Sequence record: PV636258.1
Reading direction: 5' to 3' (one strand)
DNA: 64,000 nt
Source of the DNA: a phage
The position numbers were made by a program, and so were the translations under genes. Position 1 is the first letter of the stretch. Each line of letters opens with the position of its first letter. The notes beneath the pieces are model-generated. The model was not told the DNA's origin. It was given only the letters and a program-made list of their open reading frames with translations, and searched no databases. Below are positions 38,465 to 46,408 of the stretch, in pieces.

Positions 38465-38674
38465 TTAGGTCGGCTTCTTTTTCAAATACTGGCGAGCCAA
38501 ATCCATTTGTTCTTCAGTGATAGGACAACCGCCGAAGTCCACCATTCCATTCCTCCAACCATGGATGAAACTCTTAGATTCTAAGCCAGATAGGACATAT
38601 CCTTCACGGGCTTGCATATACCCGCGAAGAATCTCTTCATCGTCCATACTATTCAGTTCTTTCAAATCCATCAT
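38465..38674 (-). CDS. Hypothetical protein
   Basis: 69-aa ORF overlapping the primase stop. Confidence 0.4.
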   Translation of the reverse strand: MMDLKELNSMDDEEILRGYMQAREGYVLSGLESKSFIHGWRNGMVDFGGCPITEEQMDLARQYLKKKPT

Positions 38675-39735
38675 ATCTTCCTCAAGTCAGAAAATCGTAA
38701 GGACGCCGACAGTCCCTGATATACGTTCTTGGCCATGATCTGAAGCAGATCACGTATCGGGATATTTCCCTTGTCGGGGCGAACCATATCATTGATATCC
38801 TTCCACGGTATTTCCGGTGGAAACAGAACGACTTTGACTCCGCTGTCTATCATCTTCTGTATACCGTCACAAACTTGTTTGTTCCTGTATTGGTTATCGG
38901 GGATATAGATGTCCCCCTTAGCACTTAATAAGTCGGCATCGGCAGTCGCAAGACAATTAGGTAGAAACAAGCTATCAATTGGACCTTCTACTACCAACTT
39001 TGTTTTGTTCCAAATGATGCGCTCTTCCCCGTAAATCTTAGTGTCTTCGTTCTTAGGCTTGACAGTGGCATACCGTAATACCCCATCAGGAAGGTTATCG
39101 CCGAATGCGCGCCCCTGAACTATCTTCATGCGCCCGTCTTGGGTCCAGAATGGGATTACCAGCCGCTCATCTTCGGGTATCTTCTTCTGCTTCTCAACAT
39201 CCGTTTCGAAACTCAGAAGATCTTGACGAAAATTTCTGCTGTAATATAACAAAGATAACGTGCTCTCCGGCATTCCCCTGCCTTCAACATAACGACGGGC
39301 GATATGATCACGGTCAAGAAGATCAAGGCGTATCATATTCCCAAGGTGCTCTTCATCCCGTTTGGCGACCCGAGAACCGATACGTGCTGTCTGGGTCAGG
39401 CGCTGTAGTGGTTTGAGTTTTTGTAACGGGCGGGAACTGGTATCCCCCATGATTCTGAATTTTTCAAGGTTGTATTCATTATACAGACGCTCGTCAAACT
39501 TCTTCAACCAGAATTCAAACGCCCAACCGCTCATTTCATTACAGTTGTGGCACTTGAAACGAAACACATCGTCATCACGATCATAAAAGAAGTGACCACG
39601 ACGCTTGTTAGCACTCTTCTTAGAATCCCCACATAATGGGCAACGAAATTTGGCGACAGCGCCAACACGTTCCCAGCTGAATTTATCAAGTCGGGGGGCG
39701 AGAAAATTGATGTATTGTTCGTCAAGAAATTTCAT
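38671..39735 (-). CDS. 61: DNA primase (T4 gp61-like)
   Basis: 354 aa; zinc ribbon FRCPLCGDSK...KCHNCN as in T4 gp61 (FRCPVCGDSK...CYNCN); Toprim-type acidic blocks (VVEGPIDSLF). Confidence 0.75.
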   Translation of the reverse strand: MKFLDEQYINFLAPRLDKFSWERVGAVAKFRCPLCGDSKKSANKRRGHFFYDRDDDVFRFKCHNCNEMSGWAFEFWLKKFDERLYNEYNLEKFRIMGDTSSRPLQKLKPLQRLTQTARIGSRVAKRDEEHLGNMIRLDLLDRDHIARRYVEGRGMPESTLSLLYYSRNFRQDLLSFETDVEKQKKIPEDERLVIPFWTQDGRMKIVQGRAFGDNLPDGVLRYATVKPKNEDTKIYGEERIIWNKTKLVVEGPIDSLFLPNCLATADADLLSAKGDIYIPDNQYRNKQVCDGIQKMIDSGVKVVLFPPEIPWKDINDMVRPDKGNIPIRDLLQIMAKNVYQGLSASLRFSDLRKI

Positions 39736-40017: not shown

Positions 40018-40635
40018 TTAAATCGCGGGCCTCTGGAACACTTCTGACACATTATAATCCACCCCGCGACTTTGAGCTATGCAAAGCTGTCTCCATGCAC
40101 CATATAGAATATTCTGCTCTGCGACTTGATTGCGTTCAAAGTGGGCGAATTCTTCCAGCATCTGTTTGTACCCCAATAGATAAGGAGGGATATCTGTAGG
40201 TCTTCTTTTGCCCAAAGATTTAGACAAATATGATGCATAATGTTCCGGTGAAGACAAAGATGAATATTGCATATTTGGAACGTGAACGGGCTTCAAAGAT
40301 TTTCTAGGGGTGAAGTACAACAAACCCCACTTGGGAGGGAGGTCTTCAATTTTAATAACATCTGCTGGGCAAACATAGAAACGATATGCTCCCATGCCTA
40401 TGGAAGGATTCATGCGATGAGGTTTCTTTTTGTCTGTCAGGAAGTCGGCGCGGGAGACTTTAACTTCCATTAATATAGAACAACCCCCAGGTCTGAACCC
40501 GATGGCGTCAGGGGATTCACGATTATCGAATGAATTTGGTTCTACGAACACAGCACCACAATTCATTTGTTTGTGTAGAAATTTTGCAGCGATTTGACAA
40601 CCTTCTGAGTGAGAAGGTATAAAGATTTTGCCCAT
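40018..40635 (-). CDS. Putative PD-(D/E)xK-fold nuclease
   Basis: 205 aa; candidate motif PDAIGF...ILMEVKV (D...E.K). Confidence 0.35.
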   Translation of the reverse strand: MGKIFIPSHSEGCQIAAKFLHKQMNCGAVFVEPNSFDNRESPDAIGFRPGGCSILMEVKVSRADFLTDKKKPHRMNPSIGMGAYRFYVCPADVIKIEDLPPKWGLLYFTPRKSLKPVHVPNMQYSSLSSPEHYASYLSKSLGKRRPTDIPPYLLGYKQMLEEFAHFERNQVAEQNILYGAWRQLCIAQSRGVDYNVSEVFQRPAI

Positions 40636-40698: not shown

Positions 40699-41052
40699 TT
40701 AGGACAGTTGCTTCAGTTTGTAAATCGTTTGATAGCACAGAGTCTTGATTTCGTCAAGCGTATTTTGTAAATGGCTATCACACTGATTGTAGATCCCATT
40801 AACGTCGATGATCACGCTGTTGATATACGATATCGGTTCAGGATTGTACAATTTGATGTTCTCGAATCCTGGAATGTATATACCTCCCGCACCAATATAC
40901 GCTTCCGTAAAGGTGTCCAGCAAGTCCTCCAGTTCCCCGTAGAACTCCCCGAGTGCCTTGTGCTTGGCATAGGACGTTGTAACGAAGTGGAGGGCATGAG
41001 AGTGGGCTATAGCAAGCAGTCCACGGTTGATGAATATACTCGCGTTAACCAT
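40699..41052 (-). CDS. Hypothetical protein
   Basis: 117-aa ORF, ATG start. Confidence 0.4.
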   Translation of the reverse strand: MVNASIFINRGLLAIAHSHALHFVTTSYAKHKALGEFYGELEDLLDTFTEAYIGAGGIYIPGFENIKLYNPEPISYINSVIIDVNGIYNQCDSHLQNTLDEIKTLCYQTIYKLKQLS

Positions 41053-41101
41053 GATTGTTTCCTCAGAAAAAGAAATCCCCCTGTATTTAGGGGGATTGTC
41101 A

Positions 41102-41344
41102 TCAAGGCTTGATCAAAGTCAGCTTGACGGTTTCACCCGTGCTGGTGTTCGTCAGGGTCATAATGTTCTGTGCGTTCACAGACTTCACTTTCCCCTGATG
41201 TTTATCCCCGTTGCGATCATAGTAATCAATCAAATCGCCTTTGTTAGGGCGGCCAACGTCGGTGATGTCATACATGCCCTGCTGTCCAAGACGGCGATGG
41301 TCAACCTTTGCTTCCTTCAAGAGGAAGTCCTGGAATCCTTTCAT
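41102..41344 (-). CDS. Hypothetical protein
   Basis: 80-aa ORF, ATG start. Confidence 0.4.
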   Translation of the reverse strand: MKGFQDFLLKEAKVDHRRLGQQGMYDITDVGRPNKGDLIDYYDRNGDKHQGKVKSVNAQNIMTLTNTSTGETVKLTLIKP

Positions 41345-41353
41345 ACAACCTCC

Positions 41354-41923
41354 TTAGACAGGTTTAACGCCGATATATTTGGCAATGTCCGCAGCTAGGG
41401 TTTTTCCCTTACTGATGTCATGCTGTTTGCCAGCGACTGTGACAATTACATATGGATCGTCTTCTCCGCCGAAGTCGATTGCGACAGGTTTTCCAATACC
41501 AGGAATACCGGAATATTCAAACTCTGTACGACCGCTTTTACGAGATTTGCCAACGCCCAGCGCTTTACCGATCATCTTATCCATGTTCGCCAATTCTTGG
41601 GCATAGGATTCTGTGACCTGACCTTTGCTGGCATCTTTCCCAAAGAAGAACTCAAAACCGTCATGAACGGCAACCACATCTTTACCGACAGAAACTGCAT
41701 GAACCTGGTCCGGTGTGAGTTTTACTTTGGTGGTGTTGCCGTTAGTCAATTCCAGATTATAGATGTCGGCCTGATTATCTGGAGTGATCTGGGTTACGGT
41801 GGCACCAGTACACCATTGGGTTCCGTCGGCCTGTTTGGTGATGGTTACACTTTTGCCTTGTATGCCGCCATGAGTTTGCGGTTGTTGAGCTTGTTCTTTA
41901 AAATATTCGATAAACGGTTTCAT
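41354..41923 (-). CDS. Hypothetical protein
   Basis: 189-aa ORF, ATG start. Confidence 0.45.
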   Translation of the reverse strand: MKPFIEYFKEQAQQPQTHGGIQGKSVTITKQADGTQWCTGATVTQITPDNQADIYNLELTNGNTTKVKLTPDQVHAVSVGKDVVAVHDGFEFFFGKDASKGQVTESYAQELANMDKMIGKALGVGKSRKSGRTEFEYSGIPGIGKPVAIDFGGEDDPYVIVTVAGKQHDISKGKTLAADIAKYIGVKPV

Positions 41924-41952
41924 CGTGGATCTCCTAAGGATTTTGATGTATT

Positions 41953-41970
41953 TAGCCCCCGAAGGGGCTA
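41953..41970 (-). terminator. Stem-loop (TAGCCCC-CGAA-GGGGCTA)
   Basis: 7-bp perfect inverted repeat downstream of the 909-aa gene. Confidence 0.45.
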
Positions 41971-41974
41971 TGAC

Positions 41975-44704
41975 TTATTTCAGACTAATCTGAAGATTAC
42001 CACCCAGCGATTGTTCATATTCACTGTATGCACTATCACCATTACTCATAGCCCATTCGTCGGATTGGCGAGCGCGTTCAAGGGTCATGAGATTTGGCTC
42101 GGTAGGATTATAGCCTTTAGATTTCGCGTCGTTGTATACCGTTTGCAGGTATTGGTTGGCACGGTTGATCTGATCCTTGAATTCACGATATGCTCCTTCG
42201 GTCGTATTGCGACGGAAAGTGATATCCCAAGCAACATTCAGAACTGTACCATTACTGGCTGTGTATACCTGCCAATCCAGATCTCGTCCATTAGGAGCGC
42301 TGTCACGAATGGATTCGGCATAGGTGGCCAGATCACCTGCATTCTTACCTCCAGCAGCCTGATCTTTAGCCCGAGCCAGAGCATCAATGACTGCTGTGCG
42401 GTTCCTGGACTGCGCCAAATCTTTGTCTTGGAACATAATCGCGCCAAATTTACTGACAGTGATGTCATTCAGGAACAGATTGTTAGGGTTATAGTTTGAT
42501 GAACTGAGGTGGCTCAGTTGCGACGCTGCGTCTTTCAGGCGTCGAGAAATCTCATCCAATGCATCTTGCACTGATTTGACAGACAACGAAATATCATATC
42601 CATTGCTGTCTACTACATTTCGACCATTTTCAGTCAACATGGTGGTGATGTTGGCTTTGTTTCGATCGAAGTCGTAAGTTACGTTGGTAACGAATCTTGC
42701 GGCTTGCAACTTGCTGCCAGCAGGGAACTGGAAATCCCACGCTACAGAGAAGCCATGAACGGTTTCACCAAAAAATTTAGCATTGCTTGGTACTTTGATG
42801 TTTGCAGTGATCACTGCATTTTCACTGGAATTGGTGTTGATTTCACCAAAGATAGTACGCTCGTCGGAAGATTGAACCAACAGAGTATCTTTTCCACGCC
42901 AATCATAGCGGACTTTGAATGTTGTACGAGGAAACTCTTTCATCAGATCAAGTTTGACCGCCTTGCCCAAGGTAAACCGATTCAGCAGAGCGTCAGCGAT
43001 CTTCAATGTGAAAGAACCGCAATCAACGTAAGAATATCCCTGAGAACGGGAAATTTTTTGAATCGGATATGGGGCACCGTTAATAGGAACAACACGGCAT
43101 TCTACTTCTCCTGCAAATTGAGAATCGGCTGCACGGGAGATTGCGCCCACTATTTCATAAGCGGCGTTTTTCACGTCTCCTTCCAGCATAAGTTGGTCAT
43201 GACCAGACAAATCTGATACTACTTCTACAGAAAGTTTTCCGTTGACAATTCCCCAGAAATAAACCTGAATGTCCAGACCACCCGAAGTACGATATTTGCC
43301 CGCACCGATTCGTGTTAGTTTCTCACCTGCATACATACCGACCTGTTGTGGAGCATATGTATCAACGATACCCAAGATGCGGGCGATATAACCCTGGTTG
43401 CGCAGATCATCCATAGAACCGGTTTTTGGAAGAGTTTTCATGTCGACGGGAGCAGTAGCCCCTATTCCAAATTCAACATATGCCACAATCTTGCCGCCGG
43501 ACTTCAGTTCCCACCCCATTCCCTGACGGTCAGAAGCTGCCATGATTTTGCGATCCACTTCACCGCGACCGACATATTCTTTGTTGAATACGGTCACCTG
43601 AGCGATAGATTGGGAGCGGGCAATCTTCGCCATTGCGCCATCTTTGACCATGATGGCCAGATCATTGGAACTCAGAGTCACATCGTTCGCACCGACTACC
43701 TTCACAACAGAACTGAAGATACCGTTGGACTTCGCCATGATTGAAATGTTCCAGTCAGGATTGGTAGAATCTGAATTGCTGGTGTCAACATCCACAACAA
43801 GTACAACCTGCCCGCCTTTCTTGAACGTGTACTGGTCATACAACCCTTTCTTCTGTTTAGACATGTCTGCGCCGATTAAGTCCTGGTTGGTGAAACCGCG
43901 CTTCATGCTCCAGGATACTTCTGTGCCATCCAGGTATTTATCAAAATTGTAGCCATAGAAGGTGGCAACTTCACGGGAACCGCTCACCAGTCGGACGTAG
44001 TTTCCGCGGATAGGGTCGCGACCATTCTTCAATTCAAGGCTAGTGTCGGAAGAGTTATACCAATCACGGTTGACTTCAACCTCTGAACTGTTGTAAGAAG
44101 ATGAAGTCCCCACATCCAGAGTATCGTTCTGAACCGGAACGTCACCGACTTTGTCCGGATCATCCCATGTGACACCTTTCATTTTCGGGCCATCAAATAC
44201 CTGAGCAGGATCCTTACCTTTACGCACAACCCATACAAATGCACGATCAGGGATAGGGGTATACGTCAGGTCCATGACATTGAGCTTCTGCTTCAGGCCG
44301 GACTGACGGATGATCTTCGGCAGGAGGGTAACACCACGTTCCAATGCTTTCTTGGAGAAGTTAATTGCAAAGCCGTCAATGGTTTTACCCAAAGGCGTCG
44401 CCATGAATTGCTTTGTTGCTTCAATCATGGATGCGATAACGCGCATCGGATTCTTGAAACGACCGATGGCATCGGGATATGTGGAACCACGCTTCTGACC
44501 GATAAAGACTTGGCGAACATTCTTGCCTAGACCTTGTGGGGTATAGAATTGAATACGGAATTCTTTTTCGTCTTCATCAACAAATGTGAAGAAAATGTCG
44601 CCAGCGTTCTTCTTGCCGAATGTCAATTCATACGGGGATGAGTTAAACGCTTCGTCTAATTGTTTAGACTCTTCAAGAAAGTTCAAGAAAGATGGGATGG
44701 CCAT
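41975..44704 (-). CDS. Large hypothetical protein (909 aa)
   Basis: Uninterrupted 2.7-kb ORF, ATG with AGGAG SD; S/T/N/G-rich, beta-rich composition; no polymerase or ATPase motifs seen. Confidence 0.6.
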   Translation of the reverse strand: MAIPSFLNFLEESKQLDEAFNSSPYELTFGKKNAGDIFFTFVDEDEKEFRIQFYTPQGLGKNVRQVFIGQKRGSTYPDAIGRFKNPMRVIASMIEATKQFMATPLGKTIDGFAINFSKKALERGVTLLPKIIRQSGLKQKLNVMDLTYTPIPDRAFVWVVRKGKDPAQVFDGPKMKGVTWDDPDKVGDVPVQNDTLDVGTSSSYNSSEVEVNRDWYNSSDTSLELKNGRDPIRGNYVRLVSGSREVATFYGYNFDKYLDGTEVSWSMKRGFTNQDLIGADMSKQKKGLYDQYTFKKGGQVVLVVDVDTSNSDSTNPDWNISIMAKSNGIFSSVVKVVGANDVTLSSNDLAIMVKDGAMAKIARSQSIAQVTVFNKEYVGRGEVDRKIMAASDRQGMGWELKSGGKIVAYVEFGIGATAPVDMKTLPKTGSMDDLRNQGYIARILGIVDTYAPQQVGMYAGEKLTRIGAGKYRTSGGLDIQVYFWGIVNGKLSVEVVSDLSGHDQLMLEGDVKNAAYEIVGAISRAADSQFAGEVECRVVPINGAPYPIQKISRSQGYSYVDCGSFTLKIADALLNRFTLGKAVKLDLMKEFPRTTFKVRYDWRGKDTLLVQSSDERTIFGEINTNSSENAVITANIKVPSNAKFFGETVHGFSVAWDFQFPAGSKLQAARFVTNVTYDFDRNKANITTMLTENGRNVVDSNGYDISLSVKSVQDALDEISRRLKDAASQLSHLSSSNYNPNNLFLNDITVSKFGAIMFQDKDLAQSRNRTAVIDALARAKDQAAGGKNAGDLATYAESIRDSAPNGRDLDWQVYTASNGTVLNVAWDITFRRNTTEGAYREFKDQINRANQYLQTVYNDAKSKGYNPTEPNLMTLERARQSDEWAMSNGDSAYSEYEQSLGGNLQISLK

Positions 44705-44772
44705 TGTAATTCTCCTGATTATAAAATCGGTGCGGTTTCCCTTAATTAGCGAAAAGAAAGGGGTGCTTCTTA

Positions 44773-45048
44773 TTAACGACGAAACGGGCGAGACGCGTTT
44801 TGGCGATTGTTGTAATTCTTATCAAATTGTGCCAACGCCGCCGGACTCCATTCGCGTTCCCATTCTTTGTCAACTTCGGTTTGGTTGGCAGGTTCAATCA
44901 TTTCAGCAGTAGGAAAATCGCGTTTCATAATTTCACGCAATTGTTCAGAAGGGGCGGTTTGGGCGTGGACTAATTCTTCACCGTCGTAAACTTTGGCCAT
45001 CAACCATTTGCTGCCGTAACGGATATATGCGTCGAGGATGATTTTCAT
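44773..45048 (-). CDS. Hypothetical protein
   Basis: ATG at 45048 with AGGAAC SD; the track start at 45069 is TTG. Confidence 0.4.
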   Translation of the reverse strand: MKIILDAYIRYGSKWLMAKVYDGEELVHAQTAPSEQLREIMKRDFPTAEMIEPANQTEVDKEWEREWSPAALAQFDKNYNNRQNASRPFRR

Positions 45049-45096: not shown

Positions 45097-45124
45097 ATTA
45101 TACGTGGGTTATTGAAGAAGTAAA
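45097..45124 (-). promoter_or_regulatory. Sigma70-like early promoter (minus: TTTACT-N16-TATAAT)
   Basis: Consensus -10 TATAAT; -35 abuts the hairpin. Confidence 0.45.
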
Positions 45125-45140
45125 GGGGCTTTTGCCCCTT
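45123..45140 (-). terminator. Stem-loop (AAGGGGC-TTTT-GCCCCTT)
   Basis: 7-bp inverted repeat with flanking T-tract. Confidence 0.45.
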
Positions 45141-45152
45141 TTATTGAATAAT

Positions 45153-45791
45153 TTAAGGTGTTGGGTTGACAACGGGAATATGGAACCTGATCCCAGAGAC
45201 AATGTCCTTCAACTGTGGCTGCCAACCCGTGACCAAACGGGGTAGCGCATTAGAACCAGGATAGACAATAATGATATCGCTTCCGGTTACATTATGTTGA
45301 GGGAATTGTGACATGTATTGCTCCATCGTCACCCCTGGGTCTATCAACACAGGACCGACATCCGAAGATGCATATGTTGCCCCCAAACCGTCGACGCCCC
45401 ATGCTAATATTCCATAATCAGGAATATTGGCTTCAGAAGTTATGGTGAATCCGAAGATACGATTCAGCGCAGAAAAATCATACACGCCGTGAGCACTGTC
45501 ATATGTCAGATAACCCTTTGCCAGCATATCGGCGAATATCGCGTCTGTGTCACCAGTTGCCGGAGTCGGTATGGTAAACAATAACTCACCAGCAGGAGGT
45601 GATGGATACGTGCCGAGCGCATAAAGGCACCAAGCGTCAATGCATTTCTTGATGAATGCTTCAGGCGCGACATAATCCGCAAGGCGCATTGTACCGGAAT
45701 ATTCTGAAGTAATGATCCCTTCCTTCGCGCCCTGAATAGCCAGAAACACCATTATGTGTTCATATCCGGTCTGAGATGGAGTGATATTCAT
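45153..45791 (-). CDS. Hypothetical protein
   Basis: 212-aa ORF, stop overlapping the next start. Confidence 0.45.
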   Translation of the reverse strand: MNITPSQTGYEHIMVFLAIQGAKEGIITSEYSGTMRLADYVAPEAFIKKCIDAWCLYALGTYPSPPAGELLFTIPTPATGDTDAIFADMLAKGYLTYDSAHGVYDFSALNRIFGFTITSEANIPDYGILAWGVDGLGATYASSDVGPVLIDPGVTMEQYMSQFPQHNVTGSDIIIVYPGSNALPRLVTGWQPQLKDIVSGIRFHIPVVNPTP

Positions 45792-46408
45792 TATCTGGTC
45801 CTCTTGAGTTTCTCAATCGTGCGCTTATTCATGGCGATCACTCCTGGGTCGACCTTTGGGTTTATTGCCATGCCTTTGAAAGACACACATCGTTGAAGAT
45901 ATTTAGCCTTCTTCACGACGTCGGCTGCATAAGAATTGGATTTCTGGTTACGATTGAACCCAGCATTGTAAGAGGAAAGGGATTTGCGGATGTTTTGGTT
46001 ATGATATTCTAGCCAGAAATTCATTTCATCAAGGGCAGCATTGGCAGCATATTCTTGATTGACCAGTAATTTGATCGCGACATTGGCGTAACACTTCTGC
46101 GTTTTGCATCCCTCCCGTTTCCCGACGGTTTGGACGCGATTTTGAAATGCCCCCATATTAGCCGATTTGAGGTTATTCCGCATGGATACAACATCTTCTC
46201 CGGCGCGGCTTTCCCTCCATGATATTGCGGCGAGAGTGAAACCAAGGTCTTGTTGTTTTCCCACGTGATAGGCTGTGGCCATGGTTGAAAGTTGTTGATC
46301 AGAAAACTCATAATCACATTGGGTGGTACTTTGGGAAGCGTGCACACTCCCGCTGGCAATGGTAAAGGTCACGGACAAGGCCATGGCCTTCAACGTTGTC
46401 ATCGTCAT
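45791..46408 (-). CDS. Secreted protein with lytic-transglycosylase-like (SLT) motif
   Basis: N-terminal signal peptide (MTMTTLKAMALSVTFTIASGSVHA); block AISWRESRAG...NMGAFQ resembles the SLT catalytic E-S...G.FQ region. Confidence 0.4.
   Translation of the reverse strand: MTMTTLKAMALSVTFTIASGSVHASQSTTQCDYEFSDQQLSTMATAYHVGKQQDLGFTLAAISWRESRAGEDVVSMRNNLKSANMGAFQNRVQTVGKREGCKTQKCYANVAIKLLVNQEYAANAALDEMNFWLEYHNQNIRKSLSSYNAGFNRNQKSNSYAADVVKKAKYLQRCVSFKGMAINPKVDPGVIAMNKRTIEKLKRTR

Follow-up and report, generated by a model that had tools for sequence, protein, structure and literature searches.

The closest described counterpart of the locus analysed here is Alt of phage T4 (NP_049811), a head-packaged and ejected RNA polymerase ADP-ribosyltransferase (ART) that the prohead protease gp21 cuts at ITE-6 and also at LTE-619 (PMC5694885). 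Both Alt and the T4 internal proteins (IPs) are non-essential and ejected (PMC9026906, PMC5694885). IPI, IPII and IPIII are hypervariable anti-restriction proteins of 8–20 kDa, basic in character, whose N-terminal targeting signal of just 10 residues ends in a gp21 site. The ejection ('E') proteins of the giant phages phiKZ and SPN3US are large multi-domain proteins that are likewise packaged in the head, cut after Glu by a gp21-related protease and ejected. A related arrangement is found in MuF-type polymorphic toxins, where a conserved N-terminal head-associated domain precedes diverse C-terminal cargo packaged in phage heads; that N-domain belongs to the MuF/SPP1 gp7 family, which differs from the one described below, and these toxins occur mostly in temperate siphophages of Firmicutes. 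Here we report on chennai_138, a gene at positions 41975..44704 (minus strand) of a 64,000-nucleotide stretch of phage DNA (record PV636258.1; the whole stretch is referred to as the window), whose product is on balance probably an internal head (ejection) protein of the Alt type that carries a polymorphic, non-ART payload.

Salmonella phage Chennai (MN953776.1; 157 kb; Ackermannviridae, genus Kuttervirus) matches the window region with 100% identity, window positions corresponding to positions in that record minus 55,328. The gene product (QIG60503.1, a 'hypothetical protein' in MN953776.1) has 909 amino acids and a mass of 100.6 kDa; the gene starts with an ATG, 6 nt behind a Shine-Dalgarno sequence AGGAGA (44711..44716, minus strand), and ends in a stop codon at 41975..41977. 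A preliminary description of this DNA, made from the sequence alone, had presented chennai_138 as the largest open reading frame (ORF) of the window, situated among the replication genes of a T4-like phage. Its size rank is confirmed (the runners-up have 784, 777 and 775 residues), as is its location among replication and recombination genes (primase at 38671..39735; gp46/47-like genes from 47408), whereas the comparison with T4 holds for the genome organisation only, as the phage belongs to the Ackermannviridae and not to the T4-like Straboviridae. The reported lack of polymerase, helicase and ATPase motifs was also borne out: the full protein gave no significant match in Pfam, NCBIfam or PDB sequences and has no Walker A motif, Pfam returned sub-threshold noise only (DUF4718, DUF6401), and PHROGs returned just its own unknown-function family, phrog_3867. 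Foldseek comparison of the whole model with the PDB yielded nothing at E<1e-3, and a PCNA/sliding-clamp-like fold was dismissed at a Foldseek probability of ≤0.16. A Ser/Thr/Asn/Gly-rich and beta-rich composition, proposed at the same time, is present in mild form, as these four residues account for 28.3% of the protein versus 23.2% of other ORFs (7 of 69 ORFs equal or exceed it) and the AlphaFold2 (AF2) model has 35% strand and 25% helix; His and Cys are nearly absent from the protein. The broader statement that no motif is recognisable is true of library searches but not of profile-profile comparison, which identifies an Alt-type N-terminal domain.

This N-domain (aa 19-192; 44129..44650, minus strand) is basic (pI 9.7), near-invariant across Ackermannviridae and shows a GNAT-like fold at modest Z in the predicted structure; no Pfam match to GNAT was obtained for it, and motif A was not recognised by inspection of the beta4-alpha3 region. 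A 56-sequence non-redundant alignment of the N-domain was compared with a 12-sequence alignment of the Alt N-terminus from diverse Straboviridae, and hhalign joined the two at 96.3% probability (E 1.5e-9) over 162 aligned columns. As controls, 30 column-shuffled Alt alignments reached at most 0.9% probability (score 18.5 vs 66.1 for the real pair), a reversed alignment 0.1% and an unrelated alignment of the C-terminal module 0.2%. Reciprocally, a hidden Markov model (HMM) of the Alt N-terminus placed N-domain family members straight after Alt and its known partial duplicates, alt.-1 and alt.-2, and no decoy ORF intervened. Direct BLASTP comparison of chennai_138 with T4 Alt was not significant (best E 0.52) and paired nothing in the catalytic region, though the pairing it gave was collinear (query 24-58 with Alt 15-51; KVGDVPVQNDT at 185 with KVGDVYINKDT at 187). 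Searches of PDB sequences with the N-domain and C-terminal module profiles found no match, a scan of viral contigs with the Alt N-terminus returned close T4 relatives only, and a match of the N-domain HMM to T4 cd.1 (E 0.003, 39 aa) was judged spurious. The profile comparisons strongly support the assignment of residues ~19-192 as a remote homolog of the T4 Alt N-terminal domain.

The Alt ART domain (PF03496) was not matched by chennai_138 at E≤1, T4 Alt itself scoring E 5.8e-36, and because this domain was tested for and is absent, chennai_138 does not belong, enzymatically speaking, to the Alt family. PF03496 was found on 4 of 63 distant proteins that carry the N-domain. The catalytic domain of one metagenomic protein, P0187 (580 aa), matches Alt at E 5e-15, and in tblastn searches its N-terminal part led to Ackermannviridae orthologs and its C-terminal part to Alt proteins of T4-like phages. 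P0187 is a natural chimera of an Ackermannviridae-type N-domain and a T4 Alt-type ADP-ribosyltransferase domain, a full combination that was found in no isolated phage of a 50,697-record collection.

Ahead of the N-domain lies a predicted propeptide or leader, aa 1-18 (MAIPSFLNFLEESKQLDE; 44651..44704, minus strand), with a predicted prohead-protease cut after E18. The pattern [LIV]-x-E-[ASG] occurs only twice in the 909 residues, as LEE-12|S from position 10 and as LDE-18|A from position 16, and hhalign pairs L16-D17-E18|A19-F20-N21 with I4-T5-E6|L7-F8-D9 of T4 Alt, which loses its first six residues (X15811 annotation). Distant N-domain proteins show L-x-E-[A/S]-F-[N/D] after a leader of 3-50 residues, and 89% of them have such a motif within their first 22 residues, compared with 13% of the ORFs in the window. 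Relative to the capsid-targeting sequence (CTS) that T4 internal proteins carry, the leader of chennai_138 (MAIPSFLNFLEE|S) is only loosely similar and the strict CTS pattern is not matched. Cleavage after E18 is predicted to leave AFNSAPYELTFGK as the mature N-terminal peptide. The genome encodes a Peptidase_S77 (gp21-type) protease, chennai_196 (E 3.5e-28), a T4_CASP (gp22-type) scaffold that has 11 LxE-type sites, and a capsid protein of the Gp23 type whose only LGE|S site immediately precedes the mature domain, and the protease, scaffold and capsid genes stand in T4 gene order.

Orthologs of chennai_138 are present in virions. Sajous1 gp214 was recorded with 196 spectra, among the top five in abundance, in CsCl-purified Kuttervirus virions, which also contained the proteins of the three following genes (gp215, gp216 and gp217; PMC10892097); gp214 is a 795-aa ortholog of chennai_138 (P0034 in our set). 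In Dickeya phage LIMEstone1 the ortholog is represented by two overlapping ORFs of 163 aa and 375 aa (ORF082 and ORF081; L027 2456..4052), which correspond to its two halves, are both listed as 'confirmed structural protein' and were both seen by mass spectrometry (MS), with 23 unique peptides and 55% coverage for ORF081 (40.85 kDa) and 4 peptides for ORF082 (18.76 kDa), 27 together. The ortholog is intact (531 aa; L026 3001..4596) in XF4, a phage near-identical to LIMEstone1, and the LIMEstone1 split is either a frameshift or sequencing error or a real division of the gene. CRISPR genome reduction of the Ackermannviridae phage selz produced a viable 122.7-kb mutant, selz_8t3 (PMC9825161). In this mutant all of the ortholog but its final 32 codons, which are now part of a fused 66-aa ORF, has been lost, and the gene is therefore dispensable for growth on the laboratory host. 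Overall, we consider it highly probable that chennai_138 is a genuine, abundant and non-essential virion protein with an Alt-type N-domain. The preliminary description had likened the protein to structural or injected proteins, with a packaged effector as one option, and had placed it in an early-type transcription unit; the abundance of the orthologs in virions and the Alt-type N-domain agree with the view of a virion protein, of which early timing, injection and host-takeover or effector activity would be putative features.

All homologs of chennai_138 that tblastn and two large protein searches returned belong to Ackermannviridae-type genomes of ~150-160 kb, and their products range from 687 to 1208 aa, none with a Pfam domain. 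The first 192 residues are present and almost invariant in all homologs. They are followed by a beta-rich, acidic (pI 5.3) cassette (aa ~193-420; 43445..44128, minus strand) that is replaced, shortened or deleted, or unrelated, even between phages with 95-99% identical flanks. The conserved middle modules (aa ~421-767; 42404..43444, minus strand), which are well-modelled alpha/beta sandwich domains with no informative structural match, and the remainder of the protein (aa ~768-909) are more widely shared than the cassette, and aa 630-767 were present in 120 of 120 close homologs. The C-terminal module (C-module; aa ~795-909; 41978..42322, minus strand) bears the signature T-F-R-R-N-T ... N-G-D-S-A-Y-S-E-Y-E-Q-S-x-G-G. 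It was considered as a minimal R-S-ExE ADP-ribosyltransferase, having conserved F-R-R and S-E-Y-E motifs, and this was rejected because the Arg lies too close to the ExE, the segment between them is helical and Pfam gave no ART match.

An exhaustive HMMER search over 1.8 billion representative proteins demonstrated that the N-domain and the C-module move independently. The N-domain (aa ~10-190) heads about 90 otherwise unrelated proteins of 306-1409 aa, and the C-module stands alone in about 45 mostly small proteins. The C-module also forms the end of 129 among 199 N-domain proteins (279-1409 aa), and the cargo behind the N-domain in this set falls into 24 groups without detectable mutual similarity. 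Single-linkage clustering of the first 200 residues past the N-domain was uninformative, as nearly all were merged, and a third large homolog search with the N-domain profile returned just 5 short proteins and added nothing. An N-terminal L-x-E site is present in 48% of the stand-alone C-module proteins versus 13% of background ORFs (Fisher p = 2.6e-5), and many of these proteins begin with CTS-like leaders such as MKTFKEFVKE. Seven metagenomic C-module proteins (P0201, P0203, P0204, P0206, P0223, P0242 and P0247) form a subgroup with a leader of the type MKLTxLxEMAAKK and, before the C-module, a Cys-rich, zinc-ribbon-like motif (CxKCGK...HYWYKGGWxCK); one other C-module protein carries Pfam KMPT-N.

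We regard it as reasonably probable that chennai_138 is internal, protease-processed and ejected, with a much lower confidence in any specific activity that might be assigned to its payload by analogy. In this proposal the protein would be made from the chennai_139-138 unit, and its N-module (the leader plus the basic GNAT-like Alt-type domain, aa 1-192) would bind the gp22-type scaffold core and so be built into the prohead, where the gp21-type protease chennai_196 would remove the leader after Glu18 (L-D-E|A), the equivalent of Alt ITE-6. The mature ~98-kDa protein would remain in the DNA-filled head in tens of copies or more and be ejected through the tail with the DNA at infection, after which the variable part, comprising the cassette, the alpha/beta modules and the conserved C-module, would act on a host component. 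Counter-defence or host takeover is the most plausible role for this payload, a suggestion that stems from analogy with T4, cassette swapping and dispensability pointing the same way; such a role would explain both dispensability on a permissive laboratory host and polymorphism between near-identical phages. Together with two downstream genes that have CTS-like leaders, chennai_138 would constitute an internal-protein locus of the Ackermannviridae.

In comparison with the described systems, T4 Alt resembles chennai_138 in its homologous N-terminal ~180 residues and in a short leader ending in L/I-x-E at the aligned position, where the cut has been demonstrated in Alt. Alt and the chennai_138 orthologs are also alike in being large, present in virions and non-essential, and a UUCG hairpin flanks each gene, the order in T4 being hairpin, TATAAATA, alt. 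Unlike Alt, chennai_138 has no ART domain, an unrelated payload and no TATAAATA directly upstream, and it belongs to the Ackermannviridae rather than the Straboviridae. The T4 internal proteins follow the same logic, being dispensable and hypervariable between close relatives and having a targeting signal at the N-terminus that ends in a gp21 site, whereas chennai_138 is a 100-kDa protein with a folded ~175-residue N-domain behind its leader and shows no sequence similarity to any T4 IP. The phiKZ/SPN3US E proteins differ in having no detected sequence relation to chennai_138, much longer propeptides and many essential members. In loading, processing and delivery, chennai_138 probably works like Alt and the IPs.

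Several observations weigh against this interpretation. The main one is that the sole promoter-like element apparent for chennai_138 is sigma70-like, which does not account for the late supply of an abundant virion protein and speaks against plain late expression of the kind seen in alt: no TATAAATA-like late promoter (≤1 mismatch) was found between the chennai_138 start and the upstream genes, whereas T4 alt has TATAAATA directly upstream and the neighbouring chennai_137 and chennai_135 have a relaxed NNTAAATA. The match of the N-domain profile to the single T4 Alt sequence is marginal (E 0.089 among 450 ORFs). PF26846, a recent Pfam family that sits on this N-terminal region in Alt fragments, is assigned to no Ackermannviridae ortholog in precomputed Pfam annotation, and the link to Alt therefore goes beyond current family annotation. 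Library, structure and profile searches identified no enzymatic or binding domain in the payload, so that the term 'effector' is an analogy. Finally, whole-virion MS cannot separate head from tail or inside from outside, and the authors of the Sajous1 study assigned this protein to the tail, calling it a 'tail completion protein' of a 'ferrojan horse' operon (PMC10892097).

The protein could instead be an external accessory component of the virion, either a capsid decoration or a tail/neck fibre or appendage, with the N-domain as its anchor and the variable middle directed outward, which we think unlikely. No fibre, spike, Ig-like or decoration match was found in Pfam or PHROGs and no beta-helix or fibre fold in structure searches; the preliminary description had named similarity to a tail-fibre or capsid-decoration family with a late promoter immediately upstream as contrary evidence, and neither was found. 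Moreover, the anchor would be homologous to an internal, ejected T4 protein and not to a surface protein, the leader bears protease-type LxE sites, the adjoining genes have capsid-targeting-type leaders, the TSP1-4 complex is already recognised as the receptor-binding apparatus of Ackermannviridae, and a Hoc homolog is present in LIMEstone1. The name 'tail completion protein', also found in some records, does not fit chennai_138 and is disfavoured because the gene is dispensable and genuine tail-completion genes are located elsewhere (chennai_182 and chennai_205).

A different alternative retains the internal location but assigns a mainly structural task, such as DNA condensing or organising or an aid to ejection, instead of an effect on the host. 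The basic N-domain, the contacts that T4 internal proteins make with DNA phosphates via lysines, the high copy number and a C-terminal half conserved across the family are in keeping with such a task. It is nevertheless quite improbable in our judgement: the protein is dispensable for plaque formation, cassette swaps between near-identical phages suggest diversifying pressure from a variable partner, and true effector domains, ART for instance, occur in relatives that share this N-domain. Least credible is that an intracellular early or middle protein with no structural role, such as an enzyme using the GNAT-like N-domain, co-purified or was trapped in small amounts. This very improbable reading draws on the position among replication genes in a unit with a sigma70-like promoter and without a late one, the fold of the N-domain and the low-level non-structural contaminants (such as ligase, PhoH and gp44) of both virion proteomes, and has to be set beside the top-five abundance of the Sajous1 ortholog.

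The sigma70-like promoter (TTTACT-16-TATAAT; 45097..45124, minus strand) heads the chennai_139-138 unit at the place given in the preliminary description, matches the consensus at 10 of 12 positions and is kept at the same position in the distant phage LIMEstone1 as TTTACT...TATACT, where the depositors label it 'putative middle promoter'. Its -35 hexamer is overlapped by a GC hairpin (AAGGGGC-AAAA-GCCCCTT; 45123..45141, minus strand) that closes the upstream chennai_141-140 unit, the equivalent of which is annotated as a terminator in LIMEstone1. The gene chennai_139 (44773..45048, minus strand; 91 aa, unknown function, phrog_5704) is co-transcribed upstream of chennai_138, and its ortholog was deleted along with that of chennai_138 in selz_8t3. 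Directly after the chennai_138 stop codon, a UUCG-tetraloop hairpin (GCCCC-UUCG-GGGGC; 41953..41970, minus strand) had been described as the terminator of the unit; the hairpin is stable (-13.8 kcal/mol, z = -3.0) but is followed on the coding strand by AAAUACAUC and not by a U-tract, and it is therefore not a canonical intrinsic terminator. A relaxed late-promoter-like element, GCTAAATA (41949..41956, minus strand), is situated here, 26 nt upstream of chennai_137, and LIMEstone1 has an exact TATAAATA right after the same UUCG hairpin, ahead of its chennai_137 ortholog.

The phage uses T4-type late promoters, and both exact TATAAATA copies of the window are located 23-29 nt upstream of baseplate hub genes. 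The relaxed NNTAAATA core shows a strong preference of position: it was intergenic in 10 of the 21 copies listed, compared with 7% of the window being intergenic, and 8 copies are found 22-38 nt upstream of start codons, among them those of baseplate, tail lysozyme and endolysin genes, chennai_137 and chennai_135; from this distribution, late promoters of the phage appear to use the relaxed core. Sites with this core include 21782, 26576, 27893 and 2360 on the plus strand and 25562, 37164, 41084, 41949 and 46487 on the minus strand, and three of the minus-strand copies (46487, 41949 and 41084) lie within or adjoin GC-rich hairpins. A literature search found no transcript-timing data for Ackermannviridae.

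Downstream of chennai_138, chennai_137 (41354..41923, minus strand; 189 aa) has a leader, MKPFIEYFKE|Q, that resembles the T4 CTS, and chennai_136 (41102..41344, minus strand; 80 aa) has the CTS-like leader MKGFQDFLLKE|A. In the T4 CTS (MKTYQEFIAE|A, a 100% match to T4 ipII) targeting is controlled by residues 4 and 7 and processing by residues 8 and 10 (PMC9026906). The chennai_137 leader has F4, Y7, F8 and E10, and both leaders are aromatic at positions 4 and 7, carry Glu at 10 or 11 and are kept in Dickeya phage XF4. Orthologs of both genes are found in virions (Sajous1 gp215 and LIMEstone1 ORF080 for chennai_137; Sajous1 gp216 for chennai_136). The strict CTS pattern was matched by 3 of 1080 candidate ORFs (~97% of the genome), two of which are chennai_137 and chennai_136. 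The third, chennai_011 (65 aa; MN953776.1 17095..17295, plus strand), lies between tRNA genes and begins MKTFGDFLTE, which suggests that it may be a further small internal protein.

The next gene, chennai_135 (40699..41052, minus strand; 117 aa), is preceded by CCTAAATA (41084..41091, minus strand) and encodes a DUF5856 protein labelled ferritin/Dps-like, with orthologs in virions (Sajous1 gp217, LIMEstone1 ORF078). Its labels vary from 'starvation-inducible transcriptional regulator' (PHROG) to ferritin (Phyre, PMC10892097), and it has no CTS-like leader. Between this virion-protein cluster and the primase gene, chennai_134 (40018..40635, minus strand; a hypothetical protein of 205 aa) shows a weak PHROG link to the 'DNA repair protein' family phrog_5429 (E 1.3e-10) in addition to its own unknown-function family. 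On the upstream side, chennai_140 (45153..45791, minus strand; 212 aa, DUF7270) has a confirmed virion protein as its ortholog in LIMEstone1 (ORF085), and chennai_141 (45791..46408, minus strand) has a Pfam match to an SLT lytic transglycosylase domain (E 1.6e-4, just above the gathering score). The N-terminus of chennai_141 (MTMTTLKAMALSVTFTIASGSVHA) is signal-peptide-like, and its Sajous1 ortholog gp211 was recorded with 31 virion spectra. Many records name chennai_141 'RegB endoribonuclease' or 'site-specific RNA endonuclease', and the RegB label is probably wrong.

A wider proposal, which we hold tentatively and consider rather doubtful, is that the Alt-type N-domain is a general portable module for head loading and ejection in Ackermannviridae, T4-like and many uncultured phages, serving to deliver effectors made in advance, with a polymorphic cargo repertoire of at least 24 unrelated groups that include ADP-ribosyltransferases and a DinI-like domain. 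Under this proposal chennai_138-136 would be the functional counterpart of the T-even internal-protein locus, and the cassette would serve anti-defence, perhaps by countering enzymes that attack the hypermodified (5-NeOmdU) DNA of the family, rather than being part of an iron-based 'ferrojan horse' tail device.

A 2024 review of the Ackermannviridae makes no mention of internal or ejected proteins, and our literature search found no prior description of internal or ejected head proteins in this family; the internal-head-protein interpretation appears to be new for Ackermannviridae, as a variant of a well-known kind of system. In the literature the cluster currently has 'no functional prediction' for LIMEstone1 and is read as an iron system of the tail, the 'ferrojan horse', for Sajous1, and our interpretation provides a testable function for one of the most abundant Ackermannviridae virion proteins without an assigned role, in phages that are widely used in biocontrol of Salmonella, E. 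coli O157, Klebsiella and Dickeya. It has been asked whether the Alt propeptides target, tether or control Alt (PMC5694885), and the present comparison suggests that the N-terminal region of T4 Alt represents a folded domain for delivery, widespread and open to fusion with many cargos. Such an Alt-type delivery domain could be used to load therapeutic phages with foreign proteins. Should the payload be an anti-defence factor, variation in chennai_138 would, beside that in the tailspikes, contribute to host range within Kuttervirus.

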